From a virus (lineage: Duplodnaviria > Heunggongvirae > Uroviricota > Caudoviricetes): a stretch of 64,000 nt of DNA. Every line of letters starts with the position of its first letter. The first letter of the stretch is position 1. Location of the stretch: the IMG/VR virus record IMGVR_UViG_2877251553_000001, positions 10,207-74,206 of that record. One strand, 5' to 3'. The notes below the pieces were generated by a model that was not told the DNA's origin, searched no databases, and saw only the letters and a program-made list of their open reading frames with translations. Of the stretch, positions 46,886 to 49,788 are shown piece after piece. Made by a program: the position numbers and the translations under genes.

Positions 46886-46999
46886 CTTCAGTTTACGCCG
46901 TCAGGCGTTGCTTCTGCATGGAAAGTTAAGAAATTATTCATGTTTCGCCTCGCCTGAATGATTCTGTAACTCATATTTGCCCAACAATTCGTCCGCTTC

Positions 47000-47155
47000 C
47001 TAAATAGCTTCTGGTACGCCATTGAGCAGTGACATAACCGCGCCAATCATTAACTTGTCTCTGTTGCTGGGGCTGGCCCCTTCAAGCCAGAACCCTAAAA
47101 CAGTCTGAACCTGTTCGATGCGACATTGCGCTTCAATGAGCTGGATGTTGGTCAT
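47000..47155 (-). CDS. Small hypothetical phage protein
   Basis: 51-aa ORF, ATGA-coupled to upstream gene. Confidence 0.3.
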   Translation of the reverse strand: MTNIQLIEAQCRIEQVQTVLGFWLEGASPSNRDKLMIGAVMSLLNGVPEAI

Positions 47156-47415
47156 TTCGCACTCTCCACATCGATTAAACCGATATCTATCAGGGAGGTA
47201 ACTTTTTGTAGCCAGCTATTGATTACTGTCGCCTGTTCCCCTCCCACCGAGGGAACAATCTCATTCATCACATGAACCAGACCTGTGCGCGCTCTGGTAA
47301 GCCGTTCAGTCGCGCAATCTGCGGGAGTGAATGTGTCTGGATATGGCTCTTCACGCCCCAGCAATGATTCAATTTCCAGCTCACACGGATGACGATAAAT
47401 TAAGTTGATATTCAT
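47152..47415 (-). CDS. Hypothetical phage protein
   Basis: 87-aa ORF in a co-directional overlapping gene string. Confidence 0.35.
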   Translation of the reverse strand: MNINLIYRHPCELEIESLLGREEPYPDTFTPADCATERLTRARTGLVHVMNEIVPSVGGEQATVINSWLQKVTSLIDIGLIDVESAK

Positions 47416-47606
47416 TTTTCACCCCCAAGAATTACCAGCTCGGCACGGGCATCGTTAACCAAAGATGAGCACGCTTTAATCGCATCCACGACATCAGTAG
47501 CGTCCATTTCTTCAGCCGAAAGACTGACAGCAACCAGGACAGCCGCTGCTTGCTCGATTAATTGAAGTGCGGACGTAAGGCGAGGGGTATTAATTGAGTT
47601 ATTCAT
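47412..47606 (-). CDS. Small hypothetical phage protein
   Basis: 64-aa ORF with overlapping start and stop. Confidence 0.3.
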   Translation of the reverse strand: MNNSINTPRLTSALQLIEQAAAVLVAVSLSAEEMDATDVVDAIKACSSLVNDARAELVILGGEK

Positions 47607-47817
47607 TGGTTGCCCCCGTTTTTCCTGGCATTTCGCCACCTTCCAGCAGGAAATGAACGTCACGAACGGCGAGATCCAATATCGCGAGTAACGCCTTCAG
47701 TCTTTCGTCTCGTGAGGGAGAGTTGCTCACCAGAATGTCGTTAATCACTTCTGTCAGTGTGATGATCTGGCTTGTGCGTTCGAGGGGATCCATATGCACA
47801 TCGTAGGTTTTAATCAT
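47599..47817 (-). CDS. Small hypothetical phage protein
   Basis: 72-aa C-terminal segment of the long ORF reads as a separate coupled gene. Confidence 0.3.
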   Translation of the reverse strand: MIKTYDVHMDPLERTSQIITLTEVINDILVSNSPSRDERLKALLAILDLAVRDVHFLLEGGEMPGKTGATNE

Positions 47818-48666
47818 GTGCCACCTCCATGCGGATACGACCAGCAAAAAAGCAGATGTGATCGCGCACCAGAGAACGGCGAGCATCGCGTTCAGACTCG
47901 GCAGCAATATGATGAATTTTGGCGGTAATTGTCGGGCAATCGCGGCGAACTGCGGCGATAATCCAGATAAATTGCGGTTTTTGGGTAGGGGTAGTAGCCA
48001 GCATGTGGCAGCCTCCATTCGATAGCATGTAACGCTACCACCGGAAACGCCAATTTCGCTGGTGGTAGCCCAGACAGGGTTGGCGTAACCGGCTCGAATG
48101 GATACCGGCGCTTCCGAAGAAGCCCCTGCCTGAGCCACCATTGATTGACAAAGGCGCTGGATTATACACCAACGCCCAAAAAATGGGTGAGTCAGACCTA
48201 CGACATAAAAAAAGACGCTCGGCGCGTCATATGTCGCCATTCGATTTACCAGGACGCCAATCCCGGCACCCGTTTTATGAGGTGCCTTATAACCATAAAC
48301 CGTGTTGCCGCATAACGGCAAGCTCTTTTTTATGGACTCCGAAAACTCACTATTGGAAGAACCAGAAGCACAGTACATCGCGCTCATTTCGTTAACGTCA
48401 CGCGCGTGGACGAATGTTTTTGTGGAGTCACTACACGAGCTGAAGACATCATCTACGACCAGAAATTTTCTGGCGCAGCCGCTGACCTTCTCAATGCTAA
48501 TATCATCGCCCGAGATTTCTGGTATGGTTAAGGCATCCGTTCCGACCACAAGCAAATGATAAACTTTGCTTGTATCTGCTGTATTAATGCCTGACTTTGC
48601 CGTCATATTTCTGGATTTTGGCGACATGCCAGCCAGTGAAAATGTCTTCTTCTGGACGGGTATCAT
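47810..48666 (-). CDS. Hypothetical phage protein, probably frameshifted near 48000
   Basis: Long ORF changes to low-complexity sequence mid-way; alternative frame 47810-48028 continues. Confidence 0.3.
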
Positions 48667-48842
48667 TGGTTAACCTCCGCGAACTCCTTCATGAAACGCG
48701 CCAGCGGTTGTACGCATGGCGATTGATACCCGTCGCGATAAAACGTCACTCGGTTGTGAGACACGCTTTCGACAGTAACGAGTGCTCCGTGGGCATCTTT
48801 GTAGCGTTTTTGTGGTTGTGGTGTTCCTGTTGGCTTAGACAT
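48663..48842 (-). CDS. Small hypothetical phage protein
   Basis: 59-aa ORF overlapping the antirepressor stop. Confidence 0.3.
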   Translation of the reverse strand: MSKPTGTPQPQKRYKDAHGALVTVESVSHNRVTFYRDGYQSPCVQPLARFMKEFAEVNQ

Positions 48843-49668
48843 TGAGCGCCTCCAGACGCTTGGCGAGCCAGCGTTGCGACAGGCGGGTGAGTTCTCCTTT
48901 GCGCTGCTCATATTCCATGCCCATATCAATTAACGTGATATTGGTGCTTTCGAGATATGAGAGGTGCTCAAGCTGTTCTGCGTTCATATGGTCGCGAGGT
49001 TCGCCAGAATAGCCATTTATCCGCGCCCACTGCTTAGCAGTTAGCCCACCAAGAACGATACGAGAAATCATATTGCTCTCGTTTGTGTAGTGGTGTTGCT
49101 GCGTCGTTTTCCCCATCTCGGCACGGGCCATATTCAGCGCATCGCACATTGGCTTAAAGTTGTTTGCGGCACTGATACGGGCTTTTAGCTGGCGACGATA
49201 GCGTGCGGCGATTTCAGGCACGCTACGCTGTAATTCTTCCTCGCACTGGATGAAATAACGGCGGATAGCGTGACCCTGATCATTGCGTTCGATCATTGCC
49301 AGTTCTTTCGCCATTCCGACACTTAACAGATAGTCTTTGCCGGGTCTGCCAGACTGCTTAATCTTGCTGTAAGCCGCGCCATTCGGGCTTTTCCCCAAAT
49401 TTGGGGAAATTGTTTTATGGACTGAGTAATCGTGCCCAATGGTGAAGTCATATTCAGAGATGCGATCAGTGATCCATGTAGAGAAGTCTTTTCCCACGCC
49501 CAACGCTTTGTGTAACGCTTTTGCGCTAACAATATTGGTTTCACGCCCACCGATATGACCAGGAATAACCGGGACAATTGCGGCAAATTCATTACCGTTA
49601 ATTGTGCTCAGAGAGGCGTTCAGATGAGGGGCGGCCTCAGAAATTAATCTGCTTTTTTCGATGTTCAT
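48835..49668 (-). CDS. Phage antirepressor-like regulatory protein
   Basis: 277 aa; overall resemblance to phage antirepressor proteins, not motif-verified. Confidence 0.45.
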   Translation of the reverse strand: MNIEKSRLISEAAPHLNASLSTINGNEFAAIVPVIPGHIGGRETNIVSAKALHKALGVGKDFSTWITDRISEYDFTIGHDYSVHKTISPNLGKSPNGAAYSKIKQSGRPGKDYLLSVGMAKELAMIERNDQGHAIRRYFIQCEEELQRSVPEIAARYRRQLKARISAANNFKPMCDALNMARAEMGKTTQQHHYTNESNMISRIVLGGLTAKQWARINGYSGEPRDHMNAEQLEHLSYLESTNITLIDMGMEYEQRKGELTRLSQRWLAKRLEALNV

Positions 49669-49788
49669 TTTCAGTCTCCGTTAAGCGGCGTTAAACGCGT
49701 CCGGGTAGAGTTTCAGAATGTCGGCAATTTCCTGCTGAGAAAGTCCGTTGTGATCATTTATGTTCGCAAGATGGTTAATATGAAGTGG

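Follow-up and report, generated by a model that had tools for sequence, protein, structure and literature searches.

A probable IS600-stranded relic of an EcCIMP1-like phage satellite with a predicted C4/CI-type RNA immunity module

Introduction

The stretch of DNA analysed here, called the window throughout, comprises 64,000 nucleotides (nt) of the IMG/VR virus record IMGVR_UViG_2877251553_000001 (positions 10,207 to 74,206), and the subject of this work is a block of 2,890 bp within it (46891..49780, minus strand), which lies between two inverted copies of the insertion sequence (IS) IS600 and points the opposite way to the int and alpA genes of its own element. The block is very likely a 2.89-kb central piece of the early/immunity operon that belongs to an EcCIMP1-like phage-inducible chromosomal island (PICI), a phage satellite, and it has been stranded by IS activity. 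The analysis establishes what the element is and how it is built, the structure of its RNAs and the co-variation of their target sites, and, for each open reading frame (ORF), whether it is coding. The block is a degraded copy of a known kind, and both the family of elements with its helper and the RNA switch are already in the literature.

Gene string and coding status

A previous reading made without database searches (the sequence-only reading) had described positions 46891-49780 as seven minus-strand ORFs forming a string of small, translationally coupled genes. These coordinates are exactly the unique DNA between the inverted IS600 copies, and all seven non-nested ORFs (277, 88, 355, 83, 87, 51, and 52 amino acids (aa) as listed) are present. 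After correction of the start codons and addition of the nested genes, the block contains the following genes.

48835-49668, minus strand: AntA/AntB-family antirepressor gene (ant), 277 aa, intact
48663-48842, minus strand: DUF4222 gene, 59 aa, overlapping the ant stop (ATGTCTAA)
47599-48666, minus strand: 355-codon ORF, 'ash family protein' in RefSeq
47810-48004, minus strand: icd/kil-like gene, 64 aa, nested in the 355-codon ORF in another frame
47599-47817, minus strand: orf72, the C-terminal part of the 355-codon ORF, with a start overlapping the icd stop (ATGATTAA)
47412-47606, minus strand: orf64, overlapping the orf72 stop (ATGAATAA)
47152-47415, minus strand: orf87, ATGA-coupled
47000-47155, minus strand: orf73, truncated to 51 codons; the intact gene would reach 46934
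46891-46941, minus strand: first 17 codons of orf200, cut by the left IS600; the intact gene has 603 nt in the islands L001 and L002

A start/stop overlap can be read from the sequence at each junction from ant on, as the sequence-only reading had proposed: ATGTCTAA joins ant to the DUF4222 gene, ATGATTAA joins icd to orf72, ATGAATAA is found at both orf72/orf64 and orf73/orf200, and ATGA is used at the DUF4222/355-codon ORF, orf64/orf87, and orf87/orf73 junctions. Three of the listed starts needed correction. The 88-aa ORF from TTG is really a 59-aa gene from ATG at 48842, and the 83-aa ORF from GTG is a 64-aa gene from ATG at 47606. The 52-aa TTG ORF is an artefact; the real gene begins with ATG at 46941, and IS600 interrupts it after 17 codons. 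Nested icd and orf72, the RNA genes C4 and isrK, a nonsense mutation at 47002, and the 3′ end of a PM1773-family gene are further features that had gone unnoticed.

The product of ant belongs to the AntA family (Pfam AntA, E 1.3e-21, 77.4 bits against a cut-off of 27) and also matches the PHROG anti-repressor Ant (E 2e-37); its only unique substitution is R133H. Two of the small proteins fall into known families, contrary to the earlier statement that none of them is recognisable: the DUF4222 protein (Pfam DUF4222, E 5.8e-25) and the nested Icd, which belongs to NCBIfam phage_ICD_like (NF033153, E 9.8e-20, 70.4 bits against a cut-off of 25). These families came from profile searches of the kind that had been recommended; in the structure searches, the model of the orf87 product gave no fold match.

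Selection was analysed in the window and six Escherichia coli copies (L001-L006), which are 94-99.7% identical and were aligned without indels; the copies L011-L013 (Salmonella and one draft contig) were excluded for their many 1-nt indels, which are probably assembly errors. The ratio of nonsynonymous to synonymous polymorphism (pN/pS) in the annotated frame is 0.33 for ant, 0.15 for the DUF4222 gene, 0.31 for orf72, 0.41 for orf64, 0.49 for orf87, and 0.00 for orf73. In the off-frames it is mostly about 1 or above, with a few values at 0.56-0.90, and most off-frames contain stops. Among the aligned copies, icd shows only 1 variable site in 192 nt. In a codon-usage score trained on the window's own long genes, the annotated frame ranks highest of its three frames for every gene. 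The coupled gene string is real, far beyond chance, and its ORFs pass both the codon-usage and the conservation tests on which the sequence-only reading had let its case depend.

RNA immunity module

Inside the 355-codon ORF lies a set of putative RNA elements, which resemble those of satellite P4 in kind and order.

48292..48321, minus strand: putative PLE-like promoter, with −35 TTGCCG at 48321-48316, an 18-nt spacer, and −10 TATGGT at 48297-48292
48208..48285, minus strand: isrK-type leader (equivalent of P4 seqA), Rfam isrK 67.1 bits against a gathering score of 50
48254-48260 and 48237-48244, minus strand: leader target sites a1 and b1, respectively, complementary to the C4 loops
48214-48228, minus strand: intrinsic terminator hairpin in the leader with a T-run after it, found by scan
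48058..48145, minus strand: C4/CI-type antisense RNA, Rfam C4 79.5 bits against a gathering score of 45
48094-48102 and 48080-48086, minus strand: C4 loops b′ and a′, respectively
48012..48053, minus strand: downstream targets, a2 at 48047-48053 and b2 at 48014-48022

The promoter scores 8/12, which is under the threshold of the consensus scan, and it was missed by that scan and found by alignment with P4; its hexamers fall in columns that are invariant across P4, the diverged island L007, and EcCIMP1-type sequences, which points to a promoter function. The loops and targets pair over 7 nt for a′/a1/a2 and 8-9 nt for b′/b1/b2, the complementarity to the downstream targets being exact over 7 and 9 nt, and b2 overlaps the icd Shine-Dalgarno sequence GGAGG (48012-48016), 7 nt 5′ of the ATG at 48004. 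In the C4 stem, 9 of the 28 consensus pairs are compensatory and 0 are broken across five immunity types including those of L007 and P4. The locus therefore combines a covariance-model match, paired upstream and downstream targets, and a target over the icd ribosome-binding site, by which it belongs to the C4/CI immunity class.

Among otherwise near-identical islands, the loops and both target sets change in concert, giving three immunity types.

Type A (window, L001, L002): b′ CCAUUCGA, b targets UCGAAUGG(A), a′ ACGCCAA, a targets UUGGCGU
Type B (L006): b′ CCUUCAGA, b targets UCUGAAGG(A), a′ ACGCCAA, a targets UUGGCGU
Type C (EcCIMP1, L003-5): b′ CCUUGUAC, b targets GUACAAGGA, a′ CUGCGAA, a targets UUCGCAG

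In type C, pairing at b1 is retained through a G-U wobble. This RNA-RNA co-variation accounts for the variable centre of the long ORF.

P4 has the same layout, with isrK at 8615-8692 and C4 (the CI RNA) at 8420-8507, together with its own matching loops and targets. Matches to C4 and isrK have already been reported in Gram-negative PICIs, and the P4 CI RNA is described as lying in a 'Bro network gene' and binding seqA (PMC10111431). Between the leader terminator and C4 (48146-48181, minus strand) there is also a perfect TATAAT without a good −35, just 5′ of C4, which may be a second promoter like P51b of P1.

The first gene behind the targets is predicted to encode an Icd/Kil-like cell-division inhibitor. 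The final 65 codons of the long P4 ORF 8168-8812 are P4 kil, nested in eta, and the Icd of the window shares 41% identity with this segment; a tblastn search with Icd against the phage collection gave no hit at E ≤ 1e-3, and a small local search did match P4. The Rho-dependent terminator timm of P4 has been mapped to X51522 8365-8209 (PMC3177188), and its beginning coincides exactly with the P4 kil start codon.

The long 'ash' ORF

The 355-codon ORF is open in the window and in 6/6 aligned E. coli copies with zero indels, by which the idea of a frameshift or sequencing error in this larger ORF was rejected; the ORF is intact and the sequence correction once called for is not needed. Its unusual appearance stems from the RNA genes and the nested icd inside it. 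The Pfam model Phage_ASH (PF10554) scores well above its threshold (105.2 bits against a cut-off of 26) and covers aa 124-232, equal to nt 47971-48297. This segment is that of the promoter, leader, terminator, C4, and targets, and its pN/pS is 0.99; the family score is thus reached without amino-acid constraint over the matched part. The central 270 nt hold 88 variable columns among the seven copies, and the flanks are near-invariant. The N-terminal 122 codons look weakly coding, with pN/pS of 0.48 and 15/7/19 variable sites by codon position, and in a word-index search their homologues were found in Escherichia and Salmonella only, with ORF lengths of 113-218 aa. Where the ORF overlaps icd, codon usage favours the icd frame (+0.30) over the 355-codon frame (−0.18). 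In the relative L010, a 1-nt change in the terminator T-run stops the ORF at 155 aa with all other genes intact.

The long ORF of P4 and that of L007 also traverse the RNA region, in frame with kil/icd. PF10554 matches the old 'cI protein' ORF of P4 (L008, NC_001609) at 8168-8584, which contains the CI/C4 RNA, and not epsilon at 7888-8175, which matches PF25738. The 'cI' ORF is presumably a historical mis-assignment of the immunity factor. That factor is described as an RNA repressor (PMC10111431), and a survey of P4-like satellites took PF10554 as its epsilon profile (PMC8628076). Since PF10554 matches the cI/eta region, this survey marker detects the RNA immunity locus rather than epsilon. 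The 'Ash' family would accordingly be largely a conceptual translation of the CI/C4 locus, and by analogy with P4 we propose that the 355-codon ORF is an eta-like read-through ORF and not a conventional protein gene.

Identity and distribution of the element

Matches to the block occur in 1,361 E. coli records. Coverage of the block reaches 80% or more in 481 of these, and the top-matching E. coli island aligns over 100% of it with 99.7% identity. EcCIMP1 of strain MP1 matches the whole block over 2.9 kb with 94.3% nucleotide identity, and its gene array and protein accessions are alike. A megablast search of 50,697 phage records returned no full-length match, the fragments found covering at most 7%, and a phage origin was rejected on this ground. 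The sequence-only reading had taken the string for a phage early operon led by an antirepressor; an early coupled operon of a mobile element it is, with ant first as preserved, and the element is a satellite, not a phage.

In E. coli, the array is always found in a chromosomal island, beside tRNA-Thr/proA or near dsbA. Intact islands run in a single direction from the integrase through alpA, the PM1773-family gene, antA/B, the DUF4222 gene, and the "ash family protein" ORF holding the RNA module, to icd, orf72, orf64, orf87, orf73, genes of 200, 113, and 123 aa, and a DUF927/DUF5906 primase-helicase gene. Between the "ash family protein" and the 200-aa gene, the island records show three to four small genes. 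P22-like DNA-ejection proteins are encoded at the far end, followed by a second alpA-like gene and perC. The intact islands L001, L002, and L009 carry P22-like DNA-ejection/injection genes and a DUF2824 gene 3′ of the primase gene, a module that the window copy does not have; these genes are consistent with a P22-like helper. EcCIMP1 has been shown to be a PICI for which the P22-like phage Kapi1 brings about excision, packaging, and transfer, with AlpA in control, and it is described as having genes for an integrase, AlpA, an antirepressor, an Ash family protein, a primase, and PerC (PMC11773190).

The block shares sequence and gene order with the EcCIMP1-like Gram-negative PICIs, and one end of the element has a tyrosine integrase gene followed by alpA, which lie 5 kb away from the block and are encoded on the other strand. 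The window copy does not have a primase/replication module of its own, so it is a relic and not a functional member of the group.

IS600 boundaries, inversion, and relic status

The other pieces of the island found in the window are 38437-41611 and 53393-55540, and their positions, with those of the neighbouring IS elements, are as follows.

38648-39862, plus strand: int
39923-39989, plus strand: RNA motif between int and alpA
41080-41277, plus strand: alpA
41277-41611, plus strand: 5′ part of the PM1773-family gene (ORF 41277-41615), from BLAST to L001/L002
41694-42868: IS110-family transposase gene, frameshifted
43161-44752 and 45130-45561: IS66-family element, with a split tnpC and a tnpA-like gene, respectively
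49681-49780, minus strand: 3′ end of the PM1773-family gene (about 32 codons and TAA), the gene being split by IS600
49781-52342: right IS600 copy, interrupted by an IS629-like IS3-family element at about 50683-51989
53393-55540, oriented as the block: PerC/pRiA4b-ORF3 end, with 98.7% identity

The IS600 repeat arms are 45990-46895 and 49776-50682, and the true IS ends read from the sequence are 46890 and 49781. One IS600 splits the PM1773-family gene and the other splits orf200, and the DNA between them is inverted relative to int and alpA, from which it is separated by IS110-family, IS66-family, and IS600 elements. The two halves of the PM1773-family gene have TAT in common at the break, which fits a 3-bp IS600 target duplication and suggests that the DNA was interrupted and inverted where it lay, not delivered by a composite transposon. 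The order and orientation of the island pieces require at least two IS-mediated rearrangements. Nothing from between orf200 and the PerC end is present in the window, the DUF927/DUF5906 primase and ejection genes being missing.

Compared with its closest relative, the block carries 10 substitutions. Five of them occur in the window alone; ant R133H is one, and another turns CAG into TAG at 47002. This column is T in the window and C in all six relatives, and the resulting Q52* reduces orf73 from 73 to 51 codons. The nonsense mutation, specific to the window, is the sole real lesion inside the block.

Small ORFs of no known family

The four small ORFs between icd and orf200 (orf72, orf64, orf87, and orf73) are conserved, and Pfam, NCBIfam, and PADLOC assign none of them to a family. 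Matches to defence families were absent for every small ORF in PADLOC, Pfam, PHROGs, and NCBIfam, none of which is a dedicated anti-defence library; fold searches covered orf87 only. A collection of host-takeover or anti-defence factors, as suggested from the sequence, is not what the string holds at its core, which is a P4-type immunity/replication-control region. Only orf73 has a PHROG match (phrog_20558, function unknown), and a weak CARF-like match of orf64 (E 0.005) was disregarded. Separate gene calls exist for orf72 in L006 and L010, its homologues being found in Escherichia and Salmonella only in the word-index search, and orf64 is a RefSeq hypothetical protein in all relatives. For orf87, the diverged island L007 has a homologue with 55% identity, and an exhaustive phmmer search of 1.84 billion proteins gave only 24 cluster representatives, a narrow Escherichia/Salmonella family. 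Its AlphaFold2 model is a generic three-helix unit (pLDDT 84.7) without a significant fold match, the best Foldseek E values being 0.84 (PDB) and 0.23 (BFVD). The segment from orf72 to orf73 occupies the site where P4 has its helper-derepression gene epsilon. From this position, roles in replication control or helper interaction would be expected for the small ORFs rather than anti-defence; an accessory role of the four may also be considered.

Proposed mechanism

In a resting island, the constitutive PLE-like promoter would produce the leader (isrK/seqA, with a1 and b1) and the C4/CI RNA. The C4 loops would pair with a2 and b2, and with b2 lying over the Shine-Dalgarno sequence, icd translation would be blocked. 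Rho would then cut the untranslated icd RNA short, as it does at P4 timm and inside the icd gene of P1, and the overlapping cistrons icd, orf72, orf64, orf87, orf73, and orf200 through the primase gene would stay off. The start/stop overlaps would let a single translational decision at icd govern the whole operon. Upon helper induction, AlpA would drive upstream transcripts on which ribosomes traverse the PM1773-family gene, ant, the DUF4222 gene, and the long ORF across the leader, C4, and targets; such continuous translation would mask the targets and exclude Rho, so that both the RNA block and the termination are overridden. Read-through translation across the immunity region is a role reportedly assigned to P4 eta. 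In the window relic, the upstream promoter and the replication genes are disconnected, and at most the C4 RNA and a silenced icd would still be active.

Several observations weigh against this model or restrict its reach. The intrinsic terminator of the leader lies upstream of C4 and may limit how much PLE-like transcription reaches C4. In the Salmonella copies L011-L013, a 36-nt deletion takes out the stretch with the TATAAT. The long ORF of the window lineage is out of frame with icd, unlike P4 eta and kil, and in some relatives it stops at 155-179 codons, so its read-through role is not preserved universally. The position of ant upstream of the switch, not downstream as in P1, means that its control differs from the P1 model. 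Finally, promoter activity, RNA processing (by RNase P), and Rho termination at the locus, like long-ORF read-through and expression in the relic, are predicted by analogy with P4 and P1.

Alternative explanations

The 355-codon ORF could be a genuine 'Ash family' regulatory protein, as its RefSeq and Pfam annotation has it, with the RNA genes merely embedded in it. Its frame has stayed open in 7/7 aligned copies despite the 88 variable columns of the centre, it is coupled by ATGA to the DUF4222 gene, its N-terminal and middle thirds have mildly coding-like codon usage, and the N-terminal pN/pS is below one half; P4 eta, the counterpart of the long ORF, is also said to be translated, which counts for the protein. 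We nevertheless regard such a protein as unlikely. The Phage_ASH match coincides with the RNA module, over which amino-acid constraint is absent, and RNA-RNA co-variation explains the variation of the middle third; over icd, the coding frame is that of icd. A single T-run change truncates the ORF in L010 and leaves the rest intact, many database clusters are just 113-218 aa long, and the same Pfam model matches the old 'cI' ORF of P4. An RNA immunity locus inside an eta-like ORF remains the reading that we prefer, and two readings that go further can be put forward tentatively, at somewhat less than even chances. In one, the PICI 'Ash family' ORF and much of PF10554 would be a shadow of the CI/C4 RNA, maybe kept open only for ribosome run-through on AlpA-driven transcripts, which would generalise P4 eta; in the other, the relic would still make type-A C4 RNA, silencing its own toxic icd and immunising the host against islands of the same type.

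The block as a whole could also be viewed as a working, antirepressor-led accessory operon of a phage or satellite, whose small proteins serve host takeover or anti-defence. The four family-less ORFs are conserved under purifying selection (pN/pS 0.0-0.49) and placed where P4 carries epsilon, and the C-terminal part of Ant matches the PADLOC defence-candidate profile PDC-S22 (E 4.5e-11). Against this, the window block is severed from alpA and its promoter, inverted, and marked by a nonsense mutation; its small ORFs match no defence or functional family, orf87 has no fold match, and the families are tiny and limited to Escherichia and Salmonella islands. A site between the immunity switch and the primase gene is more simply explained by replication or helper-interaction roles, and a working accessory operon of this kind appears quite improbable. 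The inverted IS600 pair, which brackets exactly the block DNA, would in turn fit a composite transposon that delivered the block as cargo. The remainder of the island is nearby, however, since the PM1773 5′ part, alpA, int, and the PerC/pRiA4b-ORF3 end all lie within the same 17-kb stretch of the window, and for this reason the composite transposon was rejected as extremely improbable; the shared TAT of the PM1773 halves fits insertion and rearrangement in situ, and the right IS600 itself carries the IS629-like insertion. An IS-stranded relic of an EcCIMP1-like island is the explanation retained for the block.

Comparison with known systems

The closest known element is EcCIMP1, with which the block has in common the order PM1773-family, antA/B, DUF4222, 'ash', icd, and the genes of 72, 64, 87, 73, and 200 aa, as well as the overlaps; the integrase, alpA, and PerC end are also in the window. 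The window copy differs in being fragmentary, inverted, and scrambled by IS600, IS629-like, IS66-family, and IS110-family elements, in having neither primase nor P22-like ejection genes, in its orf73 nonsense codon, and in its type A loops and targets, those of EcCIMP1 being of type C.

With P4, the element shares the conserved promoter, isrK-type leader, C4/CI RNA, targets, and an Icd/Kil-like first gene followed by a primase operon, together with a long ORF across the RNA region and an AlpA-family gene upstream. P4 has nothing between orf88 (AlpA family) and PLE, whereas the EcCIMP1-like element has the PM1773-family gene, antA/B, and the DUF4222 gene there. Eta is in frame with kil, whereas the window long ORF uses another frame and continues into orf72. 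Epsilon follows kil in P4, and four unrelated small ORFs follow icd here; the late genes are sid/delta/psu in P4 and those for P22-like ejection proteins in the EcCIMP1-like islands.

The c4-icd-ant system of P1/P7 and the CI/kil/eta system of P4 are textbook systems, and the P1/P7 immI operon is well characterised (Citron and Schuster 1990; Biere et al. 1992). The window module resembles immI in the two-loop C4 pairing with a1/b1 and a2/b2, in the position of a2/b2 at the icd ribosome-binding site, in an antirepressor gene of the same operon, and in heteroimmune variants that differ in loops and targets. In P1 the antirepressor, downstream of icd, is the controlled output, whereas the output here would be the replication operon. 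The leader also fits the Rfam model of IsrK of Salmonella Gifsy-1, and both lie close to an antirepressor gene, in regulatory regions of the prophage type; IsrK has been described as an Hfq-binding small RNA and as an mRNA that activates antirepressor translation (PMC4825925), whereas the window element is predicted to be the seqA-like target leader (a1, b1) of the C4 RNA.

Significance and further observations

There is little at stake here for new biology, and the chief value of the result lies in annotation, because an ORF that is routinely annotated as 'ash family protein', and that counts among the conserved PICI proteins, is in essence an RNA immunity locus with icd nested inside it. The three co-varying immunity types offer a natural experiment on satellite heteroimmunity, and the four small conserved ORFs are candidates for helper-interaction functions.

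Some further observations concern the surroundings of the block. The stretch from the alpA end to the left IS600 (41612-45642) is occupied by the IS110-family and IS66-family elements, and the IS load of the window appears Shigella-like. At the IS66-family/IS600 junction (45531-45732, plus strand) there is a sub-threshold Rfam match to the AfaR small RNA (46.9 bits against a gathering score of 100, E 8e-6), which is probably IS-end sequence. An ALIL programmed-frameshift pseudoknot is found in the IS629-like element at 51018-51134 (120 bits), and an Rfam IS009 RNA match of 229.5 bits lies at 32604-32802 (plus strand), where GC content falls beyond the late genes of the prophage. One database homologue of orf87, P0056, ends in a translated IS600 terminus (compare window 49750-49854), so IS600 struck the island independently in another genome, within orf87.

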